A DNA stretch of 63,175 nucleotides, the filler included, from Folioceros fuciformis (taxonomy: Eukaryota): the NCBI GenBank assembly GCA_049999805.1. It is 15 parts of 15 records of this genome, joined end to end, with 100 filler letters (N's around TTAATTAATTAA, not from the genome) between each part and the next. Parts side by side here need not be neighbours in the genome. Positions count along the whole stretch, not along the records: positions 32,086 to 36,066 come from JBNGIO010000591.1; 14 more parts are not named here. The stretch is one strand, 5' to 3'. A program made the position numbers and the translations under genes. Below the pieces are notes generated by a model, which saw nothing but the letters and a program-made list of their open reading frames with translations, searched no databases and was not told the origin of the DNA. Shown piece by piece: positions 4,511 through 55,800 of this stretch. Position 1 is the first letter of the stretch, and every line of letters begins with the position of its first letter.

Positions 4511-4629
4511 TTGTGGAGTGAAATCTTGTGTCTAGAGACACCGTGAGGTCCACATTCACCCTCTATGTCATTGTAGTCGTATGTCACCTTTGGGACATGT
4601 AGAACGCCCTTTAAAGTGATCTGGTGACC

Positions 4630-6799: not shown

Positions 6800-7070
6800 G
6801 TTGACAAGGTGATCTCTCATCCAGCTTTTGTTTGAAAATGCCCCCTGGACACTTGGACTTCCCCTTAGGGTTTTATAGACGAAAAAATGTTTAGAAATCC
6901 CCTCGCCAAGTGCGAGACTTGGTGCTTTTTTGTTTTTTTGATAAGATGGATGCGAAAGCGGCTTAAGTTGGGAATGGGCCGGAGTATTTTTGCACAAGAC
7001 CTCCTTGGGTCTTGAAGTTTTAAGGTAGACCAATAACTAGTCTATGGATCAGGTAGGGGAGGGTGCTACT

Positions 7071-7170
7071 NNNNNNNNNNNNNNNNNNNNNNNNNNNNNN
7101 NNNNNNNNNNNNNNTTAATTAATTAANNNNNNNNNNNNNNNNNNNNNNNNNNNNNNNNNNNNNNNNNNNN
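7071..7170. other. Artificial gap linker, 44 N + TTAATTAATTAA + 44 N. Identical linkers start at 13312, 17310, 23122, 28488, 31986, 36067, 40616, 43985, 51051, 52440, 56694, 57898 and 60484.
   Basis: Same 100-nt structure 14 times; the 12-mer puts stop codons in all six frames. Confidence 0.99.
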
Positions 7171-8431: not shown

Positions 8432-8499
8432 ATCTCCCCCACTCCCCACCTGTTGCTGATCTCACCGTTCCTTGTGCACTTGTATTGTCATGCTAATAG

Positions 8500-13110: not shown

Positions 13111-13411
13111 GTAACGTGTTACATATAGACTTGAATCAATTTAGTTTTGAGACATGAAATGCTATCACGATAGTGATGATGAGCAACAGCAAGACAACCA
13201 AGCAACATGTGAAGATTTGTTCACTAAAGATTACGCAGAAATAGAAATGCTTCTTTGTCAACTAAGCGATTTGAGACTTGAAACAACAGATTGACCCTAT
13301 TATGTGTTACGNNNNNNNNNNNNNNNNNNNNNNNNNNNNNNNNNNNNNNNNNNNNTTAATTAATTAANNNNNNNNNNNNNNNNNNNNNNNNNNNNNNNNN
13401 NNNNNNNNNNN

Positions 13412-17166: not shown

Positions 17167-17409
17167 AGCATCACGGCAAGGATATGTGCCAAGCCCAGAT
17201 CGACTTCCAGGGCAGAGGCTTCTTATCGTGAGATGAGCCTTCAGCAATTGGCTGCGTTTTTCTTAGAGTTCATGGTATAAGAAGGGCTGGCCTGTGTCTT
17301 GCCAAGAAGNNNNNNNNNNNNNNNNNNNNNNNNNNNNNNNNNNNNNNNNNNNNTTAATTAATTAANNNNNNNNNNNNNNNNNNNNNNNNNNNNNNNNNNN
17401 NNNNNNNNN

Positions 17410-19277
17410 TCGTGATGTGCAGGAACAAGTTCCTCCACTTGTAGAAGAGGAGAGAGTGCAACCAGCTTCGGTCGAGTCGCCAGTGCTTCGTAGGTTAGGA
17501 AGGATTTCACGTCCTCTCGACAAGTATGTTGGATCTCTTGAGTATGTCATGCTGACGGATTGTGGGGAGCCCTCTTGTTATCAAGAGGCCACGTCAGTGA
17601 CTGACAAGGACAAGTGGGAGAAGGCGATGCAGTCGTAGATGGATTCACTCCGTAAGAACCAAACTTGGGAGTTGGTTCGGTTGCCTAGGGGCAAGAAGGC
17701 GTTGCCATGCAAATGGGTATAAAAGATCAAGGACATACCCCACTATGGCAAACCCAAGTACAAGGCACGATTGGTTGCTAAGGGTTTAAACAACAGCAAG
17801 GTATTGACTATGATGAGATTTTCTCACCAGTTGTCAAAATGACCACCTTGCGATGTGTTCTTGCTCTTGTTGCGAGGAACGACATGGAACTTGTCCAGAT
17901 GGATGTCAAGTCGGCATTTCTGCATGGTGATCTCCAGGAAGGCATATACATGTAGCAATCAGAGGGTTTCATTGAGAAGGGCAAAGAGAGTCTGGTGTGC
18001 AGGTTAAAGAAGAGCCTTTATGGTTTGAGCAGACACCTAGGGAGTGGTATTACAAGTTCCACTTGTTTATACTTTCTCAAGGCTACGAACGTAGCGATGA
18101 GGATCATTGCCTCTTCTATACGAAGCAAGCTAAGGATGGAATCTTGCTCATTCTGGTCCTTTATGTGGATGATATGCTAATTGCTGGGACTAACAGTGAT
18201 GAGATTTCAGCGGTGAAGTCAAAGTTGAATGCTCGCTTTGACATGATAGACTTGGGAGAGGCAAGCCATATTCTTGGCATGCATATTCATCGAGACAGAC
18301 AGAAGCATTTGCTTTACTTGTCTCAGATTGAATACATTAACAAGGTGCTTCAATGTTTCAATGTGGAGAAGGGGAAGGTATTGAGTACTCTGTTGCCTCC
18401 ATATGTGGAACTTTCAAGCAAAGATTGCCCAAGCTCTGCGGAGGACAAAGCTGAAATGGAAAAGGTTCCATACTCATCAGCTGTAGGGATTTTGATGTAT
18501 GCAATGATTGTTGCACGTCCTGACATTGCTTTTGCAGTGGGAGTGGTTAGCAGGTTTATGTCAAACCCTGGCAAGAAGCATTGGGAGGCAGTGAAAGGAG
18601 TTATGAGGTACTTGAATGGTACGAAAGCTTTGTGCTTATGTTTTGGTAGTGAAAATGCATCTATCGTGGGATATACAGATGCTGATTATTCAGGGGATAT
18701 GGACAAAAGGAGGTCCACATCAGGTTATGTCTTCATGTGCAGTGGAGGGACAGTCTCATGGCGATCTTGTTTGCAATCGTGCGTAACGCTATCTACCATA
18801 GAGGCCGAGTATGTTGCAGCGACTGAGGCGTGCAAGGAAGCCATGTGGCTTGCTCGTTTAGTGGGAGATTTGGGGATCAAGATTGAGCTGCCAGTGTTGC
18901 ATTGTGCACAAGCTCGGACACTCATGGGCATGAGGTAGACCACTTTCCTATGAAGGTAAATTGGCCTTTAAGTGGGAGGTTGTAGGGTTAATAAAGCCCA
19001 ATGTACTTAGACTAATGTGTATAGTCTAAGATTAGTGTCTAGTTAAGTATCATTAGTTTAGATTAGCTTAAGCTAATTTGTAGGAAGCTTCTTGCGCAGC
19101 TTCCTGTGCGCTTCTTGTGAAGCTTCCCAGGAAGCTCTTCTAAAGGGTATAAATACCCGCTTGAGCTCCCTTGCATATTGAGACTCTATTGTGAGAGTGT
19201 TACCTCTCTTTCTCCTCTCCTCCTTGCCTCCTCCTCTCCTCTCCTCTCCTTCACCATGCTCCTCTAGCGATCCTTCA
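17410..19277 (+). mobile_element. Copia family A (Tnt1-like) 3' half: RT, RNase H with deletion, PPT, 3' LTR 18981-19277
   Basis: [59 protein letters not shown]...CCTTCA. Confidence 0.96.
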
Positions 19278-23121: not shown

Positions 23122-24142
23122 NNNNNNNNNNNNNNNNNNNNNNNNNNNNNNNNNNNNNNNNNNNNTTAATTAATTAANNNNNNNNNNNNNNNNNNNNNNN
23201 NNNNNNNNNNNNNNNNNNNNNCGTATGTACAATGCATGAGCACCATGAGAGAGGGGAAGGCCGACCTCGTGTCCAAAAACTCAAGATATGACACTCAGAT
23301 TGCGCACCCCTACGCTATGGTAGCAGTAGGCTGCTAAGACCACTTAGACTTAAACCTCAAATTCGACCAAAGACCATAAGGGCTCACCTTCCCTAGGGAC
23401 ACGTGTGATTCCACTGCTCATCATTCCCAGGATCGAGAAAGCCCGCCTTCTTCCATTCTTTCCGCTTGAATTGTTTCTGATGGGACTGCCTCAAAGCTTT
23501 TGCTACAATCAGTACGTGTTCCCATATGCGCCATAATAAAGCCTTAGTTTTTATTATGGCACATATGGGAACAACAATTTGTTTTGACTCCCCATGATGG
23601 GAGACCAATCCCTATAGTCCACATGTGTGAATGCACTACAAGACGTTTACATACCCATACTAGCCATGCCTCCACAGTTCTACGGTACAGTTAGCCACGG
23701 CTACAAAAACTGCCTACTATTCAAAAATGCATGTTTTGCATGAACCCGCCGTACACACACCACTCGAGAAATCATCCAGACATAATCTTTATCATACAAC
23801 CGAGTGAAAGGCTCTACCGTGTGATGCGGGTCCGAACTTGCCACTCATTCATTGAGCCCCTTCCCGGTTTCTGAAAAGGCGTCATGCTAGTGGAATCGAT
23901 GAACAATACATGCCTTTAAAAGTTGGGCCCACAAGCGTAGGTCCACCTTTAGGACTAGGATTGAACTCTAGCACCAGGCCTACGCCCAAGGCAAAAAGTT
24001 AAGTATGAGGTCATTCTAACATTTTGTTTGTCAAACTTTTGCTCGGTTTGGGTGCTGAAGCAGTAGCGTAACAAACAGCCAGAGAATGTTACAAAATGGT
24101 GGAAGAATGTAACAAGAAAGCGTGACATAGGCCACATGTTTC

Positions 24143-25135: not shown

Positions 25136-28100
25136 TGTTGAAATAGCACCACTAGCTTAGATGGACTCCACAGTACATTCCTTATGGTGCACAGGATGCT
25201 ACATATATAGCCTTTAGGCAGGGCAACCCTCGATAAGGTAAGCCTTAGTCTCGAGGGTGCAATATCCTGGTATATCCTAATATATCCTGATAACACTTAG
25301 GTGGTAGATAACTATGAGTTCAATATGGGATAATCTACACTATCCTAAGTGTTGTATGCTCTTAATAACAATTCAGTTAGAGCTTGATTTCTAACATTCC
25401 CCCTCAAGCTCAGACTATTTGTAACACTCCAAGTAGTTCATGAAAGTGTAAGAACTTATCTCTACCTAGCGACTTAGTACAGATATCTGCTATCTAGTCT
25501 TCGGTCTTTACGTGCCGAAGATCTATCTTCTCAGATAATACCACTTCCCTGATGAAATGATAATGTACTTCTATGTGCTTCAAACAAGCATGAAACACAA
25601 GATTAGTAGCTAGCCTCATGCTACTCATTTTGTCACAGTAGATTGTGACCTTGCTGTTCACTATATTTCCAAGATCATGTAGAAACTTCTGCAACCAAGC
25701 TGCTTCACAGGCTACCATTGCAGCTCCCCGATACTCTGCTTCTGTGCTTGACAAAGCAACTGTCGGTTGTTTCTTGCTTTGCCAGCCGATCATACTACTT
25801 CCCAGACTGAATGCACATCCATTGGTTGATCTTCTGTCACACGCACAACCAGCCTAATCAGCATTTGTATATCCTGTCAATTCAAGATGCTTTCTATGCT
25901 CATAGAGCAATCCAAACTCAGTAGTTCCTTTCACATATCTCATGATTCTTCTAGCTGCATCCAAGTGCGGTTTCCTTGGGTTTTACATGAATTGACTAAT
26001 CAGTCCTACTGCATGACTTAAGTCAGGACGTGTGATAGTCAAGTAGATCAAACTTCCGACCATCTATCGATACATGGTCACATTTTCCAGCTCAGTTCCT
26101 ACATCCATTTGCAGCTTGACGTTCTGCTCCAATGGTGTATCCATCGCTTTGCAATATGCGATGCCATACTTCTGCAGCATATCCTTAGCATATTGTTTTT
26201 GCATTAGCCAGATTCCTTGAGGTGTAGACACAACCTCAATTCCTAAGAAGTATCTGAGTTCACCAAGATCCTTCACCTTGAACTCTTTTTGCATATTTGC
26301 CTTGACATCTACAATACCATCCGCATCATCTCCTGTGATGATCAAGTCGTCAACATAAACAACAAGACATACTTGTCCTACCTTGGTCTGTTTTACAAAC
26401 AGACTGTGATCTGCGTCTCCAATCACAAACCCTCGTTCCTTCAAATAGCTTGTGATACGAGCATTCCATGCTCTAGGTGCCTGTTTGAGTCCATACAATG
26501 CCTTCTTCAGTTTGCATACGTACGTTGGAAACTTAGGATGAACATAGCCTTCAGGCTGTTCCACATACACTTCCTCCTTCAACTCACCATTCAAGAAAGC
26601 ATTCTTGACATCCATTTGCCATAAATTTCATCGTTTAGCTGCTGCTAATGCTATGACTGTTCTTACAGTTGTCATCTTGGCTACTGGACTAAAGGTTTCC
26701 TCATAATCAAGACCATACTGTTGTGCATATCCCTTTGCAGCCAACCTAGCCTTGTTACGCTCCAGCGTTCCATCTGACTTGAACTTCAGCTTGTACACCC
26801 ACTTAGAACGAATAGGAACCTTGTCATCAAGCAATTGAACCAAATCCCACGTTTCGTTCTCAACTAATGTTGAGTATTCTTCATCCATGGCTTGACACCA
26901 CTTATCATCTATCACTGCCTCAGCAAACTTGAATGGCTCCTTACAAGCTGTGACCCTTTTCATATATGCATAATGTTGCGCATTGTAGCTTGTATAGGTG
27001 TACCTGTCAATGGGTTTCCTAACCCTCTCAGATCTCCTTGGTCTTGGTTCAGTTTGAACCCGCCTTGCATATCGTTGTTCCTTAGCACCTGGCGTTTCCA
27101 CAGACGAAATGCCAAACTCATTGTCAATGCTCTTACTACTTGAGGATTCATATCCCTCATTTCCAGTTTTGCTGCTTTCTACTCTCCCCCTCACTGACAT
27201 GTCCAGGTCAGTGGTCTTGGGTTTACAATTCTGCAGTCTTTCAGACCATGGATTCACCGTTGGTGATCCACCATTGGTCACATCCTCACTCTTTACTAGA
27301 ATACTCTTGACAGTGCTCTCCCCGATGGGTGCATCATAGGGTAGTGCAAGTGAGTTGCTATACCAGGAGGCTAACTCATCAAATACGACATCCCTGCTTA
27401 TTAGGATCTTATGTGTGGATGACACATAGCACTTATATGCCTTCCTATTTCGTGCATACCCCAGAAAAACACTCTTTACTGCTTTAGGATCCAGCATCCT
27501 ACACCTCTCATGAGGTACATGCACATATGCAATGCACCCAAACACTTTCAAGTGCCTAATATTCGGCTTATAGCCATACAGTCTCTCAATTGGTGTAGCA
27601 TCATGAATTCTCGTCGTAGGAGTTCGATTTAGTACATACACTGCTATCATCATTGCTTCTGCCCAATAATCATTAGGTAAGCACTTCTCATTCAGCATTG
27701 CCCTTGCGGTTTCCATGACTACCCTAATCTTCCTCTTTGCAACACCATTCTGCTGTGGTGTGTATGTGCAAGTCAACTATCTTTGTTTACCATGATCTGC
27801 AAAATACCTGTCAAACTCATTTGAGACATATTCTCCCCCTCCATGTGATCTTAGACAAGAGATGGAGCAACTGAATTCATTTTCAGCATGCTCTTTGAAG
27901 TCCTTGAAAGACTCGAACACTTCATCCTTATGCTTCAATATGTACAACCACGTGTACCTGCTGAAATCATCATTGAAGGAGACATAGTAGTGGGCTCCTC
28001 CAAACGATGCATTCTGTGAAGGACCCTATACATCAGAGTGTATCAATTGCAAAGGTCTCGAGCTGTTCTGCACGTGTCGCACAAATGGAAACCATGATTG

Positions 28101-28487: not shown

Positions 28488-28587
28488 NNNNNNNNNNNNN
28501 NNNNNNNNNNNNNNNNNNNNNNNNNNNNNNNTTAATTAATTAANNNNNNNNNNNNNNNNNNNNNNNNNNNNNNNNNNNNNNNNNNNN

Positions 28588-28803: not shown

Positions 28804-31082
28804 ATGGCATAGCAACCACCTCAGACTGTCACAAACAACACAACCACGGTCAATAATATAAAAATCGACTTTAAGGAGAGAGATAGATTTAATGGGACCC
28901 AGTTGGACATCTGGGCACTAAGGGTTCAAACCATTTTGAGAGAGCATGATCTCTAGGGCATCGTGACGGGCACAGTGCCCAAGCCTCCGCAACGAGCAGC
29001 TCAAGCGGACATAAATGCTTGGGCAAAGCTGGACCTTCGAGCTTTGGGCATCATTCAGTCAGCCCTGGACAGGTCTATGATGCACCATACTCAAGACGGA
29101 GACACAACCAAGGATGTGTGGGATTCCCTGAACCAGATTTATAGAGTGTCGAACGGGTCCTCGATGGTGAGTGCTACTCGTGCCTTCTACAACTGCAAGA
29201 TGAAGGAGCACGAGTTAGTAGAGCAACACGTAATCAAATTCAGGATGCTAAGGTCGAAACTCACCTCTAGTGGGACTGCAACAACGGAGATGCAGGCTAC
29301 AATAGCCCTGCTCCTCTCCCTGCCGGACAGCAATCGAGTATTTGTGAGCAACCACTACACGCACATGCGAAATGTGGCCCAGGCCACACTTGCAAGACAT
29401 ACACCTGCAATCTCCCTCTCTGACCTGATTGGAGCCCTCTTGGAGGAAGAATCCACGAGGATCGCAAGCAGGGGTGGTACCTCCTCTAGAGGAGAGACCT
29501 CAAACAAAGTTCTCTACACTAATAGAGGCTCAAAGAGGCAGCCACCACGTTAGGGTGGACAGTACCACAATGCTGGAGGCAGTGGGAGTTTCAAGCGTCA
29601 CCCACCAACAACTGCTAACAAGAAAAAGGGCCCCTGCAATTGGTGCCTCATCCCAAGGCACTAGGAGGCAGAGTGCAGGAAAAAGAAGGCAGGAGATCCC
29701 TGCCGTACAGTCCCACCAGAAGCTAACATGGCATTCAGAAAGCCTAGCACAGTTCTAGCAGTCTATATGGTTTCTACACCACAGTACAGGCATGCGTGGT
29801 ACCTTGACTCGGGTGCGTCATCACACATCTGCCACACACAGTCTGCATTTTTTGAGTATAGAAAAGTCCCAAAGGGTCAGGTCGTACTGCTTGGTGACGA
29901 TCGTGGCCTGCCAATTGTAGGAATAGGCAAGGTCCCTATCCTGTCGACGAGTGGAAGGGTTGAAACCTTGCTAGAGGTCCTGCACGTATCAGCCCTGGTT
30001 AAAAACCTGGTGTCAGTCTACCTGCTAGACACACAGCACAAGCTAAGCACCATGTTTGCAAATAGCCAGTGCCACGTAGTTGACCGGGGAAACAAAGGAG
30101 AAATGTTTGCAATAGGGACTCCAATACACAACCTATACAAGGTGGACATCCACCGTGCTCCCTACAAAGACACCAATCCTACTCGTGCTACCAAGCTCTT
30201 GGAGCTGGTACACACAGACCTGTGTGGACCCATGTCCACAACATCACTTGGCGGAGCAAGGTACTTTCTGTCTTTCATAGATGACTGGAGCTGATACATT
30301 GTTGTGTACCCTATCAAACAGAAGAGCCAAACTCTGGAATGCTTCATGGAGTTTGTGACGTTTGCACAAAGGCAAACAGGTGAGTTGCTGAAAACCTTGA
30401 GGAATGATAACGGGGGCGAGTACACCACGGATGCCTTCGCCAGCTTCTGCAAGGGATAAGGCATAGCCAGGCAGCTGACTACCCCATATACGTCTGCACA
30501 GAATCCCATAGCAGAAAGCAGTTTTCGGCACACACAAGAATCAGCAAAAACGATGCTCCAGCAAGCATGTCTTCCACGAGGATACTGGGCTGAAGCAGTA
30601 TGTACGGCAGTGTACATCAGGAACAGAGTTCCTACCAGTGTGTTCACAGGAGCAACTCCATATGAGCGCTGGACAACCCACAAGCCACGTATCAATCACC
30701 TCAGGATTTTCGGTGCACCAGCATATGCACACATGTCTGAGGACCAGAGAGTCAAGCTCGACTATAAGGCACGAAAGTACGTGTTTGTGGGTTACACCGA
30801 AGGAATTAAGGGGTACAAATTGATGGACCCGAGCACCAGAAGTATCACTCATTGCCAAAGTGTGGTGTTCGATGAGCTTTCCCTGCTCACACCCCAACCT
30901 GACCTCCCAGAGCTGGTCCCTGAACAAGAAGCATCAACAAATGAGACTTCTGAAGGGGAAAGTAGTGAGGAAACATATCAACAAACAAGTACTACAACAC
31001 ACTATGCTCATGTGCTTGCAGTTACAATCGACCAAACAGGAAGTGTCTTTCCAAATGACGAGGATGGGGAAACCATAGGTGA
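28804..31082 (+). mobile_element. Ty1/Copia 5' half: gag, zinc knuckle, protease, integrase lacking its HHCC domain
   Basis: LLLSLPDS, GPCNWC, WYLDSGASSHIC, LVHTDLCGPM, YWAEAVCTAVYIRNR, VFVGYTEGIKGY; similar to the element at 4630-5420. Confidence 0.95.
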
Positions 31083-31985
31083 TGTGGAGGCAAAACCCCG
31101 GGCACTGATTGCTGACGGGTTCCACCTTTAGTGGCCACACTAGTCCCACTGTCGTTGAGACATTGGGTTCCGTTCCCACGAAGGAGCGATGGGGTTCCTT
31201 GCTGCTATGGATGGAGGGTCGGACTCAATCGACTCGATGATGCATTCGAGGGCTCCCCTCCAGCTCCGATCAGGCGTAGGACAGGCCTCGCTGTCCAGTG
31301 GTCAGCTGCACCTCTCTCGGTGCCCACAAACTCACTCCAATCACTACAACGACCCTAACCTTTCAGATCTGCGACTTCCCTCACTCACTTCACTCGCTTC
31401 ACTCGCTCTCTCACTCCAGCACCAACACCAGCAACTAACAACGACAACACTACCTTCTACACTTCCCTACTGACTCCTCCTACTCGGCAAGAGTCACTAG
31501 ACTAACCCCAAAGAAAAGAAAGAAGGGAACACACTCCCCTCTCGGATATCTCCTCCCCACAACCTTACCAGACGCCATGAAACATGGCCGGCCTACAGCA
31601 CTTGTCCAAACAGGGAACAAGAGTGGACAGGTCGAGAGAAAGACACATCCTTTACAATCAAGAGCTAGGAGCAAGCTCCTTCACCCTGGTCATTACACCT
31701 TGTGATCCTACTAGACACCGTACAACCGACAACACACAGCTTGCGATCCTACCATACGTTGCATAGCCAGCAACACACTGCAGGTCCTAAACCAAGCAGG
31801 GACAGACCACAAGAGCTCATGAAGAGAGTACCTCCAAGAGCTCACGAAGTGACAGTCTGACTCCCAAAGTGAATGACTGCCTCCTCCTATAGGCTCACCT
31901 GATCTTATAGGAGCCTCTCTCTCTCTGACTTCATCTCTCTCTAACTTGACAAATATTATTTTAATAGGACCACTAGCCTAGCCGG
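31083..31985 (-). repeat. Longest copy (>900 bp) of LTR-like family B, inserted in the Copia element; a diverged relative lies at ~42130-42470 (+)
   Basis: Sharp junction inside Copia pol; TATA-like CTATAAGAT on the minus strand near 31905; ends ...CCTCCACA on the minus strand. Confidence 0.75.
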
Positions 31986-32085
31986 NNNNNNNNNNNNNNN
32001 NNNNNNNNNNNNNNNNNNNNNNNNNNNNNTTAATTAATTAANNNNNNNNNNNNNNNNNNNNNNNNNNNNNNNNNNNNNNNNNNNN

Positions 32086-33617
32086 GTTGACTGTAATTTG
32101 GTGGTGTCCAGATGGACACCGAGTGCATACCTGGTGAATTTGGTGAAGTTGGGAGTTCCTTCAGAGTCAGTAGATGTGTGGGAAGACAAGAATACATTGG
32201 AGAGGGTGATGACGGGTGGCAATCATGAGACGTTAACGGTGAGGGAGAATGATAGAGTGACAAAACGAAGTAGGAGATATGTATGGGTTGACAATAAGTT
32301 ATTGTTTAAGGATAACATGACAGTGGTACCAAGACCGGAAGAAAGAATGAATTTGGCAAAAAAGATTCATGTAGAGTTAGACATTTTGGTACAAAAAGAA
32401 CATTGAGTATACTCATGAATAGTTATTATTGGTAAGGAATGATAGAGGTAGTTGAGAAGGTGGTGTCTACTTGTGAGGTTTGTGATAGGGTGAAAGCAAG
32501 TTTTTCAGGCAAAACTTCTTAGCTTCATCCAATGCCTATTAGGGGATGTTTTATAGGTGGAGTTTGGATTTGGCTGGAGAGTTACCAGTCACGCGTAGAG
32601 GTTTTAAGTATGTGTTGGTAATGATAGAACATTTCTCTAAGTGGATAGGTTTGGTGCCTTTGAGAGAGAAGAAGTCACATGACATTAAGGAAGCATTTCT
32701 TAATCCTGTGTTAAGTGTTTTTGGGGCTTGTGCAAAAGTTTTGACAGATCAGGGTACTGAATTTATGGGAGATTTTGATGAATTTTTAAATGAGTATCTT
32801 ATTGATCATAGGGTAACTTCAAGGAATCACCCGGAGGCTGATGGTTTGGCAGAAAGAATGGTACAGACATGTAAGAGTGCTTTAAGGAAATATTGTTTGG
32901 TAATGGACAAGAGTGAGTGGGATAGGATGTTGCCATTTCTTGCGATGGGTTATAGGATGAGTAGGCAAGCATCACTAGGAAAGTTTTCACCATACATGTT
33001 GTTGTTTGGGCGTAGACCACAGTTATCCGCGATGTTAGAGGACAAGGTGAATACTATAGTGGATTTGGATGATCCTAATAAGTGGTTAAAGATAGTCACA
33101 TATAGAGCGGAGTTGTTTAGGAGAATAATGCCTATGGCAATAGATAATCTATGAATAGCTCAACATAGAGATGAGTTGAGGTACAGGAAAACAAGGAGTG
33201 GGCATTTCAGGCCTAAGGTGAAGAAGTTTGAAGTTGGAGATTATATATATTTGCAAAGGAAGACAATGACAACAATTGATACAAGTGCAAGTAGAATAAT
33301 ATTAAGGGTGAGAAGTGTGAAGTTGAATGGAATTTTGGAGTTGGAGGGAAAGGATGGTACAACTTGTTTGGAACACATGAAAAATTGAGCACCATGTCAT
33401 TTACCTCACTTGAACCCAATAATTGATGTGCAAGCTTTTGTGCCGAGGAAGGGATTTGCTTTGTACAGGTTGTGGAGAGTCTAGAGGTGATCATTACATG
33501 TTGTTGTGCGATAGGTGCAATGATGGGTGGTATACTTTTTGTTTAGAGCCTCCACTAGAAGCAATGCCTGATGGGCAATGGTTTTGTCCAATGTGTGTAG
33601 CTGTTAATACATCGTGA
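32086..33617 (+). mobile_element. Ty3/Gypsy integrase (H2C2 zinc finger, rve, SH3-like region) with C-terminal PHD finger; pseudogenised
   Basis: CEVC, WSLDLAG, VLTDQGTEF, HPEADGLAERMV, then CTGC...LLCDRCNDGWYTFCLEPPLEAMPDGQWFCPMC. Confidence 0.92.
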
Positions 33618-33708
33618 GGGGCAGTGTGGTCAGCATGTATGAATTTTGATGTAAAGTTTGTTAATTTATCTTACCAACGAAAGATGGTCAGCAGATTAAG
33701 GGGGGGAG

Positions 33709-34171
33709 TGATGGTATCATAGCAAGGGAGGAGGAGTAGAGAAAAGTTACTCTTTTGTCGATCTTGTGTGCAGTAAACCACCAAAGAGTGGTAGGATGAC
33801 CAATAGCCTTGGTGTGCACGACGGGGAAGAAGCACCCAAGGGGAGGCATCCAAGAATCATAAGCGTGATCAGTGTACTCACATCGAGGGAGGAGGAGTAG
33901 AGGAAAGCTACTCCTTTCGTCGATCTCGTGTGTAGTAAACCACTAGAGAGTGGTAGGATGACCAGTAGCCTTGGTGTGCACAATGGAGAGGAAGCACTCA
34001 AGGGGAGGCATCTGTGTGCACTGTTGCAAGAATATACGCGTATATCATATAGGGGCTGGCCACCCCATATATACATGAATGCATGCTAAATATATATAGA
34101 ATATATATGTGTTTAAAGATGTCTAGGGTTATGTTCAGATGTTGAAGGGCAAGACTTCTTGAAGCACGACA
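33709..34171 (+). repeat. 3' LTR of the PHD-Gypsy element, with an internal ~125-bp direct duplication
   Basis: PPT AAGGGGGGGAG directly before TG at 33709; ends GCACGACA; homologous to 51600-51936 (minus). Confidence 0.8.
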
Positions 34172-34541
34172 GCGTTCACTACTGTGCTTGACGCATCAAG
34201 AGTCCACTCACCATTTGTGGTATAGGAAGTCACATGTGCACATTCTTCCACACTCTTTAGTAATCACATAGAATGACAAAGACACTGACAATAATTTGAG
34301 TTTGCAAGCGGCAATTGGTGGAGCCTGGATTGCAACACACTAAGTGGTGTAGGCAAACTCACTTGTGGCCCAGCGGCATCTTCATGGATGTCATTTAGAG
34401 AGCAAGAAAAGCTGTCAAAATCTTCAAGTTTTGGTGAAGGTAGATCGATGCGATCCAGGTTGGACATTTGCACTCGCTATTGCTTTTGCTTTTAGAAGTA
34501 ATTGGACAGAGCACAATGGTTCAAACGACTTTTGTAGAAAC

Positions 34542-34587
34542 CAATCGGGAAGGGGGGGATTTCACAAAATCCCCCCCTTCCTGATTG
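34542..34587. repeat. Inverted repeat with 21-bp arms and 4-nt loop
   Basis: CAATCGGGAAGGGGGGGATTT-CACA-AAATCCCCCCCTTCCTGATTG, one G-T mismatch. Confidence 0.9.
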
Positions 34588-34975
34588 CAATGAGAATGGC
34601 TGGAACCACTTGTGATGTGTGTGCTGGAACCATGCTTCCTAGTGACTGTCCCCGTGCTCGGTGCAAAAACCAGGCGTGCATGTAAGGTGCTACTGGCGGG
34701 TTGCTGTCCTACATCTGAGCCGTGGTCTGCATTTCCCTTATTGCCCCTCATTTGCGTGACATTAAGATAGTGGCAACTTCAAGCATGCTGAATTCCCGCT
34801 CATTTGAGAAGATTCAGTAGTCACAGCACCAAATTGCCAGCTAGTGGCACCGTTTAATGTTGGGCTAGACACTTGCTGCCATTATTGTCTAGTTTTCAAA
34901 CTCAAGGCAAGTCCCTTAGTGTATGGAACAAATGGCAAATGGAATGGAGGTTCAATGCTATTGTGATCGAGTGTT

Positions 34976-35062
34976 AACAGAACCTGGGGGGCACACATGC
35001 CCCATTGTGACAGCCCTTAAGGGCTGTCACAACAAGGCAGGTGTGCCCCTAGGTTTGTGTTG
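34976..35062. repeat. Palindrome: perfect 28-bp core (35005-35032) with imperfect extended arms
   Basis: TTGTGACAGCCCTTAAGGGCTGTCACAA flanked by GGGGCACAC and GTGTGCCCC. Confidence 0.9.
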
Positions 35063-37787
35063 TCCACAAGATGTAGCGGCATGCGGTGTGAATGCGAGAC
35101 GCACTCCATTACCTGCAATCGAGTAAAGCTCCATCCATTACACAATTGTGACTGAGGCCGTGTGTGGTTGTGCAAAAGTTGCATTTCTCTAGATTTGCCA
35201 CTTGATCCTCGTTGAGACTAGTAAATGTAAACATCCCGCTTTGCTTCAAGGTGTGAGTCCTTAGCCTGCTACACGTCCTCGAAGTCAAAAGGAATGCCGA
35301 CGGTGGGGGGCTAGAGACAGAGCCTCCAACTGAGCTGAGTCTGCCATGGGCTTGAGGTGGGCGGCCAGAGAAGTGAGACGACTCGCTTGAGCTGCATTTG
35401 AGGTCGGCGTGGGAATGAACTACCATGGCCCAACCTTGCAAGACATGACCCACCGCACATTCTTCAAGCAAATGTGGACATTGCGCGGATTTTGCCAAAC
35501 GGCTCCAAGCAGGAAGCCCTGTCTATCTGCAGGCAGGCAACCGTTGCAAGCAGGCGGACACGGCCAAGCGGCAGGCGAGGCGGATTCAGGAGGTCGGGAC
35601 CAGATTCCGTGGGCAGAACGGTCCATCCTGGAGCGTTCCTGCCCAAGGAATGGAGGGAAGGAGTCCGCGGTGTGGCGAGATGAGCAAGGAGCATTGGGAT
35701 TCTCAAATTGTAGGGGTGGTGTTGGTGGCTGCCCCGTTCATGTGGGAAAAGGGTGCCTGGTAGCAGCACTCAGGTGCGGACGGTGAGCTGGAATCGCTGC
35801 GGGGGTTTGTAGATTGAGGTGGATCGGGGAGTCGGCACCTCTGCCAAGCATCACGTGAGCCTGTGCTTGCAGTGCCGATGCCTTTGCTCCGGGCTGGCTT
35901 CGGTTCTACATCAGCAACAACAGCAGACGGGGCCTGGCGAGGGCCTTGTCTTGGTTAGGCCGGATGGGCAAGGGGGCGGCGTTGCGTCCAGGGAGCGTCC
36001 AGGCTGGCTGGCTAGCAAGCTCCAGGCGGCCTGGTCGGATCAGGCAGGCTGTCTGGCAGGCAGTCANNNNNNNNNNNNNNNNNNNNNNNNNNNNNNNNNN
36101 NNNNNNNNNNTTAATTAATTAANNNNNNNNNNNNNNNNNNNNNNNNNNNNNNNNNNNNNNNNNNNNTGACGTCTGCAAAACGCTTTCCTGCGCCTGCACC
36201 ACATGCCCTGAGACCCCAGCAACTTCATCCCTCGCCCACAATGTGGTGATCAGTAAGTGCTATCTGACATGATGGCCTTCATCCACTGCACCACGACTTC
36301 GAAATTACCTTCTCCTCTCGCATACGACAAGTGTACAAGGAACAGGAATCTCACAATCATATACAATGCATTGCAGGTTCCATGAATCTACATACAAGAT
36401 TGGGTGGAAAACAAATGGTTATGACACCTAGTGCTGGCACCACCTTCCTTGCAGCAGAACAATGCATAATATTATATACAAAGACGTCAGTCAACATCTG
36501 GGGTGACAGTCATGCACTGACATCATGCATATGCATGTCATCTCAGCAGTCTTGCCAACCTTCCGGCCCTGCGTGAAGCTCATTGCAGACAGAAACATGG
36601 AGAGTCAACGTGGTTCATCAGAGAGCCTTGTGTATGCAAGCCCAAGGGGGTTTCTCATTCACGACTCATGTCACGACTCAGTGAAACAACGGAATCATGT
36701 GGATGTGTTAACGATTCTACACTACAAGCATGATCGGCAAGCATCGTGTTACAGAGACAGGGCACCCTGCAGCTTCGAATTCTCAAGCATACACCACCGT
36801 CTGCATGCTACCTCGATTGGGACCCATGCACACACATGGAGAGGGAGTTCTGGGTGAGCTGTGGAAATGAGGGTGAGCCACAGACGGACGTGAGGTGCTT
36901 CTACACGTGTCCGGAATCCATCCCACACCTCCAGTGTAATCTGTCCCACACTCTTTCCAAACCAACGGGAACCAGAAATGCTCTGCCTACGACTTGAACC
37001 TGAACCACCTTACCACATCCGAGACTGAAGGTTTCGCCTCCTGCAACAGGCTGTGCTTGCCAGACACGTCATCTTGGAACACTCGCATCCTGCTGTGTAA
37101 GAAACGTATAGGTGCAGACACTCACCTTGTTTTGCATTGCTTTAGCCGTGCAATCAAATGTCTCCTCACCGGTGTCTGCGTTCGTGGCTCAGGATTGCTG
37201 TCACCTCAGGCCGTCACTCAAAGCAAGAACGCATTTGTCGCTTGTGCTTTTAGAGAGCTGGAAATTACCCAGTTCATCACAATCTCTCACTCGCGCCCAC
37301 ACACGGACCTCAAGATTTGTGCCCTGCATCTATTTGCTGTCGTCCTGCCACGAGAACAGTAACTGCTGTACAGTGTACGATGAAGCAACACGCAATCGAC
37401 TACCACTCATCCCATCATTTGCCTACACTTTGCTCCTGGGACAAATAAATAACAGGTGGAAATAGCAGGGGTCACCCTCTGAGCCTACCTCTAATTGAGC
37501 ATTTCTAAGCGTCGGCGAGTGGGGGACAGGCAGATGTGAGTTTACACTCCTGGCCCGTCCAACTAATGCTCTCTGCTAACATAATTCGTGTTTGTTTGTG
37601 GTGGAGATGGTTTCATTTGCCTGTAAGAAAGTAGGTCTTCACCTGTGAAACCTCTGGAATCGACTGAGCTCAGCGACAGTGCTTTGCGCGAGCACGAGTG
37701 GGCTTCCTCTTGTTTCCTCTTCTGTTCCTACCGATAGCTGCTGCCGAACAGTCGTGAAAAGCGATTTCTTGCTTGGACGGCTGCAGA

Positions 37788-41029: not shown

Positions 41030-42110
41030 CCTGAAGGGAGGCAGAGTCTGAGGGCTAAGCCACTGGGCCCCCCTCCATTATTAGGATTCGTCTTCTTTTG
41101 GATCCACGAGCTTCCACCGTACCTTCCTCTGTGTGGATCTCTTGGGCTATCCCTTCACCACCACCTACAAGTTTGGTAGGGGGAGGGTTCCCCTTATTCC
41201 TCAACTTGAGGCTCCTTCCCTACGTAGGGTGGGAATGTTCCTTTCGTAGGTAGGTTACCTGTTGCTTCCTCTGTAGGTAGGGTCCCTACCCCTCCTCTCG
41301 TAGGTAGGTTCCCTACGGGAGTAGGTACCCCTTGTTGCGTGCTCTCCAGGTCCATAATGTTGTCCTCTTGAAAGTCTGTTGGTAGGGGCAGTGTCTCCAG
41401 GGCCTCACGGTTGTCATCATGTGGCCCAAGATACCTTCGCCTTGCCAATGCTGCCACTTCCTTGTGATGAGCGAGTAGACATTGGTGTAGGTGGAGGTTG
41501 CGATTCTGTTGAGCTAGATCTATGGTATCCATATCAACAACCCAATCCCCACCCTTGCATCTACTCTTGTAGATATCCCGTTCAGCCTCCATTGCCCTTA
41601 CCTTCAACTGTAGGTCAAGGTTTTCTTGATAAGTTGCATGAAGCTTGGTCATGCACCCCATCAAGTAGGCATAGTCAGCACGAAACCTACGAGCTCGAAC
41701 CACCAGCATCCTGTGAATCTTGGTCTGGTGCTCAGCTTCTTGTTGTGCTTTCTCTTGCCGAAGATCTTCTAATTGGATGGCCAATTGTTCCCTCTCCACT
41801 CTCTCTCGTTGCCCTGCTTCAAAGCGTTGCTGGAGTTCTTGGTTCGCTTTAGCATTCTATGCCTTCGACTCATCTAGCTTGCCTTGTAAATCCTTTGCAA
41901 GGTAGACTTGTTCCCGTAGCTGTTCCTCCACCACCTTCCTAGTTTCCTCAGATTGGGTGAGGTCCCTTCGACATGCAATGATCTCATGGAATAAACCTTG
42001 TTAGGAAGTTTGCAACGTGGTCACCTGCTGGGTCAATTTCTCTAGTCCTTACCTTTGCTCACCATCCTTGAGGAGATACTGTTCTCGCTCCTTTTCCAAT
42101 TCCTGCACTT
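41030..42110 (-). repeat. Second copy of the element at 1-1110 (3' part of the accessory ORF)
   Basis: Collinear high similarity to 1-1110 with small indels. Confidence 0.95.
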
Positions 42111-46257: not shown

Positions 46258-48717
46258 ATGGATTGTAGGTCGATCGGCCTCTTACGAGGCCTGCTTGTGT
46301 TGTTTTTGGCTTTAGTGGTTGCAGATTTAGGCCCACTCGTGGAGGGGAAAGGTGTCGGTGGGTGTGAGCGTCTGTCCTTGTGTGAAGTATCTGAGGGAAA
46401 TGTGGGAGGCATAGTAAAGGAGTGCTGTCGTGTGTTGGTGGCTGCGAATGACAGAGGCTGCTTTTGTGCTGCTCCTCCTCAACACTGGCTTCTGTCAGCA
46501 CTGGAAGTTTGCAATGTGACACTTAGCACCTTCGGCAGCCTGGAGTGTGCATCTATCGAGGGTACGACTTCTGGTGCAATGGTATTATTTACAAGCTTTG
46601 TCTGGACAATGTGTGATTCCGATGGGTGTTGTGTCTTGAAGTCTTTCTTCCTCTGGCCCCACGTGCAGCTTCCAGTCGATCAGCAATGCGGAAGCTCGGC
46701 CGGCATTATGCCAGGAGTGCAATTCATCCGGAATCTGAATTTTCAGGGCTGCCAGACCATGTAACAGAGCATGAAGTTGGAAAAGAGCATGTTGAGGGAT
46801 CAGGACTTGAAGATGGTGAACTATCTGATGGTTCAGGGGAGATTATGTTCGGAATTGGCGGTTGCGTTATGTTCTCATGTGCACTTGTATGCCCATGTTT
46901 TTTTAAGAAGCGCAATGAAAGCATCAAGGATAGTGATTCTGTGAATATACTGTCCTCAAAGGGTAAGGACCAGGCGACGTCAGGCCAAAGGAACAATTTC
47001 TTTCCTGTGGTTTATGTTCCCGAGCCATGTGCCGGCAATGGAGTTTTTGTCTTGTTTGGCTTCCCCGTAAATCACCTGACGGATGCTGCTTCATGGTTTG
47101 CACCAGGTGGCTCAAATCCCCCGAGTACGAACTTTACCATGTCTCCTGCCCGTTTTGTCACCTCTCCAACTCAACCGGATGTTGTTGCGGGAAGACCCTT
47201 CACAATGGCCGACATTATGAAAGCCACTGACAATTTCTCTCCATCTCGGAAGATAGGACAAGGTGGATTTGGACTGGTCTACCAAGGAAGGCTGCCTGAT
47301 GATCAGATAGTGGCAATCAAGCGGGCCAAAAGAGTATGATAGTTGCATTTGTGTGACATCTACATCAAGACTGTCTTTTGCTGGGCATAACGTTACCGGG
47401 TGTTGTCCAAGCAGGATGCATTTGAACCACGGTTATCGGTGGAGTTCCAGACGGAGGTTGATGCCCTTTCGCATGTCGAGCATTTAAATCTTGTGAAGTT
47501 GATCGGATATCTTGAGGAAAATCAGGAGCGTATTCTTGTTGTGGAATATGTTAGTAATGGCAATCTGCGGGAGCATCTTGACGGTGAGCACGATTGCAAC
47601 CTGCCTCGTGTTTTAGTTCCAAGTTTCTTGCGCTCTTGTCCGGCTTGGTGCATTCCATTCACTGCTCGGGGAAGGGGGAGGGAGGAGGGAGTCACTGCTT
47701 TCTTCGTCTGTTCCTGTTGGTACGTTCCATCTTCTTACTTGCTACCTGTTTCTGTAGCAAGTGCTGGAGGAATATTGGACATTGGCAAGCGGCTGGACAT
47801 CGCTATTGATGTGGCACATGCTTTAACTTATCTTCACACCTACTCTGGTACGACTAGGTTGTCAACAAACAATCTATTTCTATTCACTTCCGACTACATT
47901 TGTCAAAGTCATCTTACGTGACAGCATTTCCTGTGCAGACCGACCCATTATTCACCGAGATGTGAAGGCTTCAAATATTCTTCTTACAGACACATACAGG
48001 GCTAAAGTAGCAGATTTTGGGTTTTCGAGGGCTGGGCCTGAGGATGGTGGGGCAACTCATGTTTCCACGCAGGTTAAGGGCACAGCTGGTTACTTGGACC
48101 CTGAGTACTTGAACTCGTACCAGCTTACTCAAAAGAGTGATGTATACTCGTATGGAATCTTGCTTATTGAGATCTTTACCGGGAGGCGACCTATCGAGCT
48201 AAAGAGACCTAGTGATGAGCGAGTGACCGTGAGATGGGTGAGTAAGCGTCGCATGCTTGGAAATATTTTCCATGTTCAGATTGATCCTGCCTGTTTTAGT
48301 CAGTCTGAACGACTTGAGGGGAGCGCTGTTTGCTTGGTGACTTGGAGGTTGGAAACAGTCCTGAGTGCTTGCGTTGATATTCAGGCATGGAAGAAAGTGA
48401 GCGATGGAATGGTGGCGGACATTCTTGACCCGAAGCTTGAGCGAACCCAACCAGCAATCATGATGGTCGAGAAGGTTGCGGAGCTTGCATTTGCATGCTC
48501 AGCTCCATCAAGGAACGATAGGCCCTTGATGGGTGACGCCGTAAAAGAGTTGTGGACTATACGATCTCAGTATCAGGCTGCGATGAAGGAAATGGGGTTT
48601 GCCAAAAGTGCATCGAACGTCTCCACAGCCTCCACCCTCTCATTGAGCAGTAAGAAGGCAGGTTCGGATTATCAGTATGACCTCCCTAGACGAGGGAGCT
48701 GGCAAGCCGGAAGATAG
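46258..48717 (+). CDS. Receptor-like kinase of CRCK/RLCK-IV type with signal peptide, 8-Cys domain and TM helix. Exons 46258-46561, 46669-46962, 47107-47333, 47415-47583, 47758-47847, 47939-48237, 48385-48717.
   Basis: GT-AG introns with consistent phases; GQGGFG, VAIKRAK, HRDVKASN, DFGFSR, THVSTQVKGTAGYLDPEY, KSDVYSYG; CALVCPCF juxtamembrane motif. Confidence 0.92.
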
Positions 48718-51599: not shown

Positions 51600-51936
51600 T
51601 GTCGTGCTTCAAACGATCTTGCCTTTCAAATGTACCTAAGACTGAGACTAAGATGGAGTAAACTTAATATGGTTTGTTTATTGATTGATTTATTTGTTCT
51701 TACATTCATATGTATATGGGGGTGGCCGGCTCTAGTATTACACGTATATTCTTGCAATAGTGCACACACGGTGCCTCCCCTTGGGTGCTTCCTCCTCGTC
51801 GTACACACCAAGGCTACTGGTGATATTTCCACTCTTTGGTGGGTCACTTCACACGAGATCGGCCAAGGGAGTAGCTTTGCCTATCCCTTCTACCTCCATA
51901 TGAGTGGAACAAAATACATACATTCTAGGGTCATCA
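51600..51936 (-). repeat. Diverged isolated LTR related to the PHD-Gypsy LTR
   Basis: Shares TAGCCTTGGTGT..ACGA..GAAGCACCCAAGGGGAGGCA and the GAAGCACGACA end with 33709-34171; left boundary approximate. Confidence 0.75.
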
Positions 51937-52889: not shown

Positions 52890-55800
52890 GAACTCATCAA
52901 TGTCCCACCTGAATCAGCCAACGTTATTAATGTGAGTCCGAAGTCTGGCAGCACAAGCAATGCATTTAAGTGGCATTGCCGCCTAGGACATCCAAATATA
53001 CAAGCTATCAGGAGACTTCTTAAAGAGAAGATGGTCACTGGTTTCAGTGTGCAAGAGCTCCCTAGTCTTGATTTGTGTGTGGCCTGTGTACATGGTAAGC
53101 AATTTAAATCACACTTTGGCAGTGGTAAGCCCAGGAAAGCCACAGAACTGTTGGACCTGGTTCACACTGATATCTGTGGGCCGATGTCTGTGAACTCTTG
53201 GGGAGGAGCTCGATATTTTGTCGTGTTTGAAGATGACAAGTCACACTTCACAGTGATAGAGCTGCTTCACCATAAGAGTGAGGTGTTTGGAAGCTTCAAG
53301 CGGTACCTCGCATATGCAGAGAGGCAAACAGGCTATAAGTTAAAGTGCATTCGTTCAGACAATGGAAAAGAGTATCTATCTACAGCGTTTCAGGAGTATT
53401 GCCAGGAGAGGGGGATAGCCAGACAACTCACCATTCCTTATCATTCTGATATGAATGGTCGAGCTGAGAGAAGACATAGGACAATTCAAGACGCTGCCAA
53501 AGCTCTCCTCTATCAAGGAGACTTTCAGTTAAATTTTGGGCAGAAGCAGTGCAAGTTGCAACATACCTTCAAAATCGTTTAGTTGTTTCTTCTCTTCGTG
53601 GCAGTACACCCTTTGAAGTTTGGACGGGTAGCAAACCAGATTTGTCTCATCTCAGAGTTTTTGGCAGCACAGCTTATGCACATATACCAGACAAGCTTCG
53701 CCATAAGATAGCATTCAAGTCTAAGCGTCATATTTTCATAGGATACATAGCAGGGATACATGGATATAAGCTGTTTGATCCAGCTACCCGTCGAGTGTCT
53801 CATGCTAGGACAGTTGCCTTTGATGAAAGTTCTGTCCTTGAGTCTTCGGTTCATCCTCCAGATGTTCCCCTTGATATTGACAGTGCGGAAGTAGCAGACC
53901 ATTCTCTAGAAACAAAGGTAGAGGTCAGTGATGATGATTTTGTTACATTTCCTGCTATCGATCCATCATTTGTAGACCCATTGTCAGTTGTGCCAAACCA
54001 ACAGCCTTCACAGCGAGCAGTGTTTGATTGGCAATCAGCCTAGTCTTGTGACAGATGATGATGATCCAGTAGGTCATGTGACATCCGATGATGAAGCACC
54101 AAAAGACTCTGCACCTGCAGTTCCTCAACCTAACATTGCACAGAACACAGATATGCCTGTCGATGATCCTATGGAGTATGTGCTGCTTGATTCTCAGACT
54201 GTTCCCCTCATGAGGTCTTCTCAAGTACACAGAAGTCATGAAAACTAAACAGAACCACCTTATCGTAGTGACGACTTCAAGAAGGCTCCTCAACCTCATG
54301 GCTCAGCACTGGACCTCAATCTGGTCTTTGAACCTGGCTACGAACCACATACATATCAAGAGGTAGTTCATGGTCCAGATCCTAAGCATTGGCAAGCAGC
54401 TATTCATTCTGAATATAACTCATTAATACATAATCATACCTGGAAGCTAGTTCCTCCACCTGAGGGGAGAAAGATTATCACCTCTAAATGGGTATTTAAG
54501 CTGAAATATAAGGCGGATGGATCTATCTCCAGATATAAGGCCAGGTTAGTCGCTCGTGGCTTCTCACAGGTTCCTGGCTTAGACTACCATGGCACGTTTA
54601 GCCCTGTTGTTAAATCTCAGTCTCTTAGGGTTCTATTCTCTATGTCTGCATTCTTTGGCTTGTACATCCATCAGATGGATGTCAAGACCGCCTTCCTTCA
54701 TGGTGAGTTAGAGGAAGACATTTTCATGCAACAGCTTGAGGGATTTGAGGTAGCAGGGAAAGAGCACTGGGTCTGTCAATTGCTAAAAACTATCTATGGA
54801 CTAAAACAGAGTCCTTGTGCATGGTATGAGTGCATTGATGAGTTTCTCTTAGGTCTAGGCTTCCTCAAGAGCACAACTGATACTAATGTCTACCTTCTGC
54901 AAGAGCAAACAGGCTTTGTCATATTAGCCCGGTATGTTGACGATTGCATACTGTTAGGTACAGACTTAGATGGGATTACCCGAGTGAAAACCTTGTTGTC
55001 TGGTCGTTTTGAGATGGTAGACGTTGGGGAGTTGTCCTACTGTCTTGGCACACAGCTGTATAGAGACCTTGCAAGTGGCACACTTGTTATACATCAGCAA
55101 AAGTATATATTGGATATGCTTTTCAAGTACAAGGTTGAAGAGGCAAAGACTGCTGCTACACCTCTTGAGACTGGATGCAAGTTGACGATAGCACAGTCTC
55201 TAGTGATTGATTCCGACAAGCTTGAGATGGCTGCAGTCTCGTATGCTCAAGCAATTGGTTCCCTCATCTAGTGCTCCAATAGTAGTCGACCTTATGTATC
55301 CCTGCCAGAGAGCATGGTCTCACAACATTTGAAGAATCTAGGAAGGGCACACTGGTCAGCAGCTAAGAGGATTCTGAGATACCTGAAAGGTACAAGTGAT
55401 CATGGCATACACTATAACAAATAGAGGTCAAAAGGAGAGGAGCTTACCCTTGTCGGAAACTGTGATGTTGACTGGGCTGCAGACCCAGACACAAGGAGGT
55501 CGGTGTCTGCCTATGCTTTCTTACTTGCAGGTGGAGCTATTACTTGGTCATCCAAAAAGTAGACTACTGTCTCCCTCTCTTCAACATAGGCAGAGTATTC
55601 AGCACTCACACAAGCATCTAAGGAGGCCATATGGTCACGAAGGCTATTGGCAGACATGGGTCAACCACAAAAGGACCCGACAATTATATTCTGCGATAAT
55701 CAATCAGCACTAGCACTAGCCCAAATCCTATTCCATGCTCGTAATAAACATATATAAGTACATCATCATTTTATCAGGCATGCAATGGAAACTGGAGAGG

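Follow-up and report, generated by a model that had tools for sequence, protein, structure and literature searches.

The 3′ part of a degenerate Ty3/Gypsy-type retrotransposon from Folioceros fuciformis, with a PHD finger at the end of its integrase

The stretch of DNA analysed here, which we call the window, comprises 63,175 bases of the land plant Folioceros fuciformis (assembly GCA_049999805.1). It consists of 15 contigs of 1.1-7.1 kb separated by N44-TTAATTAATTAA-N44 spacers, and features on different contigs are therefore unlinked. The subject of this study sits in the contig at 32086-36066 (3981 bp; JBNGIO010000591.1). Positions 32086-34171 of this contig are the 3′ part (integrase, PHD finger, polypurine tract and 3′ long terminal repeat, LTR) of a degenerate Ty3/Gypsy-type LTR retrotransposon. 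The element is truncated on its 5′ side at 32086 by the contig end, past the reverse transcriptase (RT), so that the upstream order of pol is not visible in the window; the 5′ LTR and the target-site duplication fall beyond the contig. The features of the element and its surroundings are as follows.

32086..32385, + strand: RNase H-to-integrase region (N-terminal extension of the integrase), first reading frame
32382..32543, + strand: integrase H2C2 zinc-binding domain
32543..33154, + strand: integrase rve core and following helical part, ending at the stop 33152-33154
33155..33388, + strand: integrase C-terminal region, probably SH3-like, ending at the stop 33386-33388
33389..33461, + strand: linker APCHLPHLNP..., with a frameshift between ~33444 and 33460
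33462..33596, + strand: PHD finger (C4HC3) with Tyr at the zinc-binding His position; stop codon 33615-33617
33698..33708, + strand: polypurine tract AAGGGGGGGAG
33709..34171, + strand: 3′ LTR, 463 bp, TG...CA
34172..36066, strand not applicable: flank outside the element
51600..51936, - strand: related LTR, 337 bp, on another contig

The three forward frames were read and then scanned against Pfam. Both parts by which a Ty3/Gypsy integrase is recognised, an H2C2 zinc domain and a DDE (rve) core, were found. The former matched PF17921 on 32358-32543 (E 1e-11) and also PF09337 (E 6.8e-8), and the latter matched PF00665 (E 4.4e-12, residues 4-97 of the piece read from 32543-33388); the rve region was 57-62% identical to its best relatives. 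The integrase extension between 32086 and ~32385 gave no family in the Pfam scan and was placed by its colinearity with eight relatives upstream of their H2C2 domains. The region behind the core had been taken for SH3-like in a first-pass annotation of the same DNA. This was supported in part only: Pfam gave no match, and a modest structural model of a relative, the Calypogeia protein P0241, showed five strands in the corresponding part, with a predicted local distance difference test score (pLDDT) of ~80.

The segment 33423-33614 matched the PHD family PF00628 with an E value of 1.4e-10 and a score of 41.4 bits, against a cut-off of 24. The zinc ligands of the finger are spaced C-x2-C-x11-C-x2-C-x4-Y-x2-C-x14-C-x2-C (2-11-2-4-2-14-2), and the codon 33531-33533 encodes Tyr at the zinc-binding His site, leaving the window copy short of the full set of eight ligands. 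Just upstream, the end of the C-terminal region reads ...HMKN*APCHLPHLNP where relatives align as NCAPCHLP, the stop at 33386-33388 replacing the Cys of their NCAPCH motif. No chromodomain family was found by Pfam in the window pieces (E ≤ 1) or in eight relatives (E ≤ 0.001), the PHD finger standing in its place.

Sequence reading placed the polypurine tract directly 5′ of the LTR, which starts with TG at 33709 and ends with CA at 34171. Both lie 3′ of the finger, and the finger is inside the element. Within the LTR a segment is duplicated in tandem (33717-33850 and 33878-34012, 87% identical). The LTR at 51600-51936 is without this duplication and shares with the 3′ LTR the TGATG... start, the ...GAAGCACGACA end and 80% identity over 208 bp (blastn). 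It had been put forward earlier as a sign that the element belongs to a family; its presence and relatedness held, with the restriction that it lies on an unlinked contig.

The first-pass annotation had thus placed H2C2, rve, linker, finger, stop, polypurine tract and LTR where Pfam matches, frames and sequence reading also place them, and it had rightly described a Gypsy integrase that ends in a PHD finger, within the bounds of the element, instead of a chromodomain. Its count of two stops and one frameshift between integrase and finger was correct as far as it went: the stops at 33152-33154 and 33386-33388 and a frameshift at ~33444-33460 do separate the rve core from the finger. The copy is more broken than that, with two further stops inside H2C2 (32433-32435 and 32520-32522) and two further frameshifts, near 32384 at the entry to this domain and near 32541 at its exit. 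Four in-frame stops, three frameshifts and a lost zinc ligand mean that the window copy is dead and cannot work; it is an ordinary dead transposon fragment.

C is very scarce in the coding strand of 32086-33617, whose composition is A 30.7, C 11.2, G 28.5 and T 29.6% (GC skew +0.42). The GC skew of the closest relatives is +0.13 to +0.25 and that of another subfamily ~-0.04. One-strand C-to-T hypermutation was considered as the source of the C-poverty: single-step changes at conserved residues were G>A in 8 cases and C>T in 3, the rest being mixed. C>T is thus not in excess, and the closest relatives are also skewed towards G over C; hypermutation was therefore rejected as a source of the extra skew.

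Relatives were collected with a 282-residue integrase piece as query, searched among longer proteins. Matches at E ≤ 1e-5 numbered 213 among 1428 candidates, and the best 120 of the 213 form the listed set used below. PF00628 is recorded in 103 of these 120 (precomputed Pfam column), nearly always together with rve and H2C2; several of the 17 without it are short or cut models. All eight relatives that we scanned carry the PHD finger in one open reading frame (ORF), at its extreme C-terminus and ~210 residues after the rve core; in the window the rve-to-PHD distance is 629 nt. Six of the eight show the order RT, RNase H, H2C2, rve, and the other two are shorter and begin at the integrase. The window is colinear with all eight from the upstream extension through H2C2, rve, C-terminal region and NCAPCHLP linker to the finger, and each of them has His where the window has Tyr.

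The full C4HC3 pattern is present in 100 of the 120 listed relatives, always with His at this site. Among these 100 complete fingers, the 11/14 spacing of the window is the commonest (73/100), and a CAPCH-like motif lies at most 60 residues before the finger in 90. Two residues before the zinc-binding His, 89 of the 100 have Gly, not Trp.

The same architecture was found in metagenome DNA. A scan with a four-protein alignment gave 599 candidate stretches, of which 531 encode a relative, and 80 loci were kept. In tblastn with an intact relative of 504 residues, the alignments of 71 of the 80 loci extend at least to residue 483 and thus enter or cross the finger; of the other nine, at least four end at a contig end. 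As many as 75 of the 80 align as a single piece without frameshift; the copies decay almost solely by point changes. The fusion is thus colinear across relatives and metagenome loci, showing that the finger is an inherited part of the element and not a captured exon or an assembly chimera.

For an LTR search, 31 of the 80 loci were picked for their long flanks, and 29 were testable. Clean direct repeats of 280-342 bp, 80-92% identical, lie on both sides in 7/29, the 3′ repeat following the finger by 230-290 bp; 2/29 gave odd matches and 20/29 none. One LTR-flanked locus, L008, shows the order weak C5-methylase match, RT, RNase H, H2C2, rve, PHD. The direct repeats of one subfamily (L035, L037, L060, L061, L033 and L072), with borders taken from BLAST, lack TG..CA ends and have no purine tract in front of the 3′ repeat, and canonical LTRs are accordingly not claimed for these loci. 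A DIRS-like repeat structure has been remarked for KnitGypsy-Dnmt3 in the accessible text of de Mendoza et al. (2018) and may be compared with these L035-type repeats.

Other copies exist in the same organism. Contigs of two of its DNA runs, which contain 64-65% of the sampled words of the stretch, were placed on it at ≥85% likeness; 635 and 564 contigs fell on the stretch. Summed contig depth, which is not a copy number, is 240-600 in the integrase-PHD part and 845-1317 in the LTR; the flank at 34214-35277 has 13.9 and 9.4. Depth over the element so far above that of the flank means that many related copies must exist in this organism. These copies differ from the window at its lesions. At 33531, in the His codon, every covering contig has C (9 and 11 contigs; depth 581/581 and 503/503). 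Three of the four stops are not shared, the fourth not being among the rows shown, and at all three frameshift places most of the depth has another length than the window.

The contigs also bear on the borders of the element. Past 34171 those of other copies are unlike each other (agreement 0.54 in 4 contigs), and some lack the first repeat unit of the LTR. The flank 34172-36066 looks single-copy in these runs: one contig per run spans 34142-36066 or 34142-35944 with zero differences, at depths of 13.9 and 9.4. Diverging flanks behind 34171 and a drop in depth from hundreds to ~14 fit the LTR borders given above. A Pfam scan of the two longest frames of the flank gave no family. A further run, X3, which is RNA only by guess, matches 35420-35831 and 35828-36049 of the flank with identical contigs; its coverage is limited to parts of the LTR and of the flank at 35306-36049, with none of the integrase-PHD part, and we draw nothing from it.

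Membership of a family, also claimed in the first-pass annotation, is therefore well founded, both in the listed relatives that carry a PHD and in the many copies of the organism itself. The outcome that would have told against it, other copies without the PHD or never with it in frame, was not what we found, given the single ORF of the eight scanned relatives and the differences of the organism's own copies at the lesions.

Among named organisms, the integrase has relatives in Klebsormidium nitens, Haematococcus lacustris, Pleodorina starrii, Chromochloris, Pseudoscourfieldia, Closterium and the liverwort Calypogeia fissa. A search with the Calypogeia C-terminal module gave 145 matches at E ≤ 1e-10 among 241 candidates and added Sphagnum magellanicum (70-73% identity) and Marchantia polymorpha (53-55%). 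The Sphagnum protein P0255 and the Marchantia proteins P0275 and P0265, annotated as hypothetical or 'PHD-type', look like models pieced together from decayed copies (partial integrase, linker, finger). By eye, the N-terminal part of P0275 resembles the methylase-like stretch of L008; a search of Sphagnum and Marchantia gene models for PF00145 gave nothing at E ≤ 0.1.

A FastTree tree of 81 rows was built for this lineage only, leaving out rows of fewer than 380 residues and, of the unnamed proteins above number 60, all but those whose number is divisible by 5. The nearest rows to the window are the Calypogeia protein P0003 (the nearest named one), P0005 and the loci L023 and L035. Chlorophyte proteins form another large group; several chlorophyte members (P0051, P0060, P0065, P0077, P0093, P0105) extend 150-400 residues past the PHD finger. 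A comparison with the protein Atlas gave PHD clusters of Chlorophyta and Streptophyta as the nearest ones. Another Atlas cluster, of 80 proteins and commonest in Mollusca, carries PHD (99%), rve (94%) and H2C2 (66%); with a score of 0.77 against the Calypogeia C-terminal module, it gives no more than a lead to animal integrase-PHD fusions.

Chlorophyte and streptophyte algae, liverworts and mosses thus share one architecture, indicating that the lineage predates land plants. The idea of a land-plant lineage as such, with which the first-pass annotation had begun, had to be given up for the same reason. We conclude that this is an old PHD-tailed lineage, spread over green algae, streptophyte algae, liverworts and mosses, that survives in bryophytes. 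Taken jointly, the identity of the element and its lineage are virtually certain. No vascular-plant member was found among the named matches, which is weak evidence, since transposon proteins are often masked from gene sets.

The finger itself was compared with solved structures. Its best match has an E value of 9.5e-14, and the nearest solved fingers are PHD1 of Lid, KDM5A and KDM5B (E ~1e-13), then ATXR5 and BAZ2A/B, the whole group lying at E 1e-13 to 3e-12; further matches are KMT2D, WSTF, PHF21A, UHRF1, DPF3, CHD4 and AIRE. Fingers of the KDM5 PHD1/ATXR5/BAZ2 type bind the unmodified N-terminus of histone H3 and are repelled by methylation of lysine 4 (K4), whereas PHDs that read trimethylated K4 (K4me3) have Trp two residues before the zinc-binding His, the site at which most of the relatives have Gly. 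An AlphaFold model of P0241 was made from a 34-row alignment. Its mean pLDDT is 61.4 and its predicted template modelling score 0.30, with pLDDT values of 80-88 in the finger and ~80 in the five strands before the linker. By Foldseek, the model aligns with the core and C-terminal domain of retroviral and Ty3 integrases over ~260-270 columns, and its finger lies on the BAZ2B and DPF3 PHDs at 0.7-1.6 Å over 48-52 columns.

These observations suggest a use for the finger, close to the reading of H3K4 state that the first-pass annotation had proposed. In working copies it would remain joined to the integrase and could serve, like the chromodomain of chromoviruses, to tether the integration complex to nucleosomes. 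Tethering to H3 tails without K4 methylation would then bias insertion to such chromatin, away from active promoters. The position of the finger at the integrase end, where chromoviruses have their chromodomain, makes tethering the most likely mechanism, and by this analogy we give that role slightly better than even odds. Likeness to PHDs that bind unmodified H3, together with the lack of the K4me3-type Trp, makes a bias to H3K4-unmethylated chromatin the likeliest form of it; as a prediction from the sequence of the finger, specificity for unmethylated K4 (K4me0) falls a little short of an even chance. To the explanation as a whole, an old PHD-tailed lineage that tethers itself to K4me0 chromatin, we assign a probability of about 0.6.

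Several points weigh against this explanation. The window copy, being dead, is without present activity, and most of the known DNA copies are decayed too, with 1-11 in-frame stops in 78 of the 80 metagenome loci and none in only L001 and L066. Contigs of the two DNA runs are short, mostly 150-360 nt, so that no single uninterrupted integrase-PHD frame is shown in this organism. In the tree, the Calypogeia grouping has a Shimodaira-Hasegawa-like (SH-like) support of 89 and is not starred, and the window row has an odd letter make-up. The P0241 model is a modest one as a whole. Finally, some relatives have a methyltransferase in the same ORF, so that the finger may have another role than targeting.

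Such a role would lie in dealings with DNA methylation rather than in target choice, the finger guiding or licensing a Dnmt3-like enzyme, or recruiting or deflecting host silencing factors. For host DNMT3, the ADD domain plays a guiding role of this H3K4me0 type. The methylase family PF00145 occurs in six of the 120 listed relatives (P0034, P0039, P0054, P0060, P0110, P0114), in five of them with rve and PHD and in the sixth without a recorded PHD. P0034 has methylase (residues 82-140) and PHD (1470-1513) in one ORF, and L008 has a weak match (E 9.2e-5) upstream of RT in its stretch 2018-10349. Klebsormidium proteins are moreover among the relatives, and KnitGypsy-Dnmt3 has been described from that alga (de Mendoza et al. 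2018, accessible text). The finger is, however, kept without a methylase domain in most relatives (114 of the 120 listed), and it always sits on the integrase end, ~1300 residues from the methylase; the window copy, truncated before the place of the methylase, is uninformative either way. We consider a methylation role unlikely. Somewhat less likely still is that the finger reads no mark at all and is a structural zinc module, for multimerisation or nucleic-acid binding, or that it binds a host protein other than H3. Some PHD-like fingers do bind non-histone partners, and the Cys/His linker NCAPCH could extend the zinc-binding unit. Against this, the closest solved relatives are all histone-tail-binding PHDs (E 1e-13 to 1e-8), the modelled fold is close to the BAZ2B and DPF3 fingers, and the position is that of the chromovirus chromodomain, for which targeting has been shown (Gao 2008, as cited in other papers).

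A third alternative takes the fusion for an accident: a single element may have picked up a host PHD exon once, the contig may be chimeric, or the sequence may be a domesticated host gene instead of a transposon. At 3981 bp the contig is indeed short, and its assembly is fragmented; the frame is broken between integrase and finger, and the Marchantia and Sphagnum relatives are annotated as ordinary PHD-type proteins. All this is outweighed by the colinear architecture in 103 of the 120 listed relatives, from independent assemblies and at least seven named genera, and in 71 of the 80 metagenome loci, by the polypurine tract and LTR that follow the finger in the window, and by the multiple copies in the organism's own DNA runs. 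An accident is thus extremely improbable.

Other features of the window lie on other contigs and are unlinked to the element.

47391-48714, + strand: host exons of an RLCK-IV / calmodulin-binding receptor-like cytoplasmic kinase
4633-5316 (- strand), 17976-18935 (+ strand), 26064-28025 (- strand), 28957-31131 (+ strand), 52890-55268 (+ strand): Ty1/Copia fragments
168-749 and 41197-41856, - strand, on two contigs: similar open frames of ~200 residues rich in E, Q and R (...KAQQEAE.QTKIHRMLVV.ARRFR...)
7071-7170, 13312-13411, 17310-17409, 23122-23221, 28488-28587, 31986-32085, 36067-36166 and seven others: spacers

The best named matches of the kinase are from bryophytes: for the exon 47391-47918 Sphagnum is best (83%), followed by Riccia, Marchantia, Ceratodon and Calypogeia, and ferns and seed plants match less well. 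By this host gene the window belongs to a land plant, most probably a bryophyte. Four of the Ty1/Copia fragments were confirmed by Pfam matches to RVT_2, gag_pre-integrs, rve and copia-type gag, and the remainder was identified from frames. One of the two E/Q/R-rich frames was scanned against Pfam and gave no family; together they are probably another repeat family. An Rfam scan of the whole window gave 0 matches at the gathering score.

PHD fingers in Gypsy elements of Chlamydomonas, and fusions of PHD or Chromo domains to retrotransposon domains across eukaryotes, are already in print in the texts accessible to us, and the novelty at first claimed for the element was to that extent overstated. 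What stands of it is that full-text searches turned up no paper on a land-plant Gypsy lineage with a PHD at the integrase C-terminus; the supplementary lists of Neumann (2019), de Mendoza (2018) and Grau-Bove (2022) may contain one. The term 'PHD' is absent from the main texts of the REXdb classification paper, of Novikova's chromodomain survey and of de Mendoza 2018. The bryophyte members and their conserved architecture appear to be undescribed in searchable text.

A more far-reaching proposal would see here a distinct ancient Ty3/Gypsy clade, ranging from prasinophyte-like algae to mosses and liverworts and seemingly not into vascular plants, that uses an H3K4me0-type PHD for safe landing and includes many members with a Dnmt3-like methyltransferase, making it a second, independent chromatin-reading integration system in plants. 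In this full form we hold the proposal to be doubtful. If it were true, the system would be one that is absent from classifications of plant LTR retrotransposons and still numerous in bryophyte genomes in which it can be tested: good assemblies and chromatin maps in Marchantia, Sphagnum and Calypogeia make avoidance of H3K4 methylation directly testable. The family also explains 'PHD-type domain' hypothetical proteins in bryophyte gene sets.

Among known systems, those with a comparable finger are the first to consider. Many retrotransposons encode PHD fingers, according to the part of de Mendoza et al. (2019) accessible to us. According to Grau-Bove et al. (bioRxiv 2022), the readers that accompany RT and integrase domains most frequently are PHD and Chromo (823 gene models in 172 genomes); the text available names PYGO-like PHD fusions of cnidarians and Chromo fusions in Chara, and an integrase-PHD lineage of Viridiplantae is not mentioned in it. 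A counterpart by description is Gypsy-7a_cRei of Chlamydomonas, an LTR/Gypsy polyprotein with a PHD for which the authors suggest an effect on insertion sites (Craig et al. 2022, seen in part). REM1 of the same alga is likewise reported to bear a PHD. Gypsy-7a_cRei and the window element are both Gypsy elements of the green lineage with a PHD, and proteins of the green algae Haematococcus, Pleodorina and Chromochloris are related to the window integrase. The Chlamydomonas elements are algal, whereas that of the window comes from a land plant; the published legend moreover puts the PHD before the integrase, so that the position of the finger may differ in an element likened here by description only.

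The streptophyte alga Klebsormidium nitens has a Gypsy element, KnitGypsy-Dnmt3, whose Pol includes a Dnmt3-type methyltransferase (de Mendoza et al. 2018, accessible text). Klebsormidium proteins are 57% identical to the window integrase, and six listed relatives and L008 hold PF00145; the window contig begins past the methylase region, and the two families are compared by description only. As for the finger, the host fingers KDM5 PHD1, ATXR5 and BAZ2A/B share with it the pattern ...LLCD.C...(Y/W)H..CL.PPL...P.G.W.CP.C, and the modelled finger of the relative lies on BAZ2B at 1.4-1.6 Å. Those host fingers are domains of chromatin enzymes; here the finger ends a retrotransposon polyprotein, and its specificity is assumed from likeness.

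A system of similar plan is that of the chromoviruses (REXdb clades Chlamyvir, Tcn1, Galadriel, Tekay, Reina and CRM), in which a tethering role of the chromodomain has been shown (Gao 2008, cited by others). Chromoviruses share with the lineage described here the order RT, RNase H, integrase and a small histone-reader domain at the very end of the integrase; theirs is a chromodomain, whereas that of the window lineage is a PHD finger. Chromodomain-guided integration is the textbook case of chromatin reading by a retrotransposon, and a second reader at the same place, conserved between algae and bryophytes, would mean that the green lineage came to this strategy more than once.

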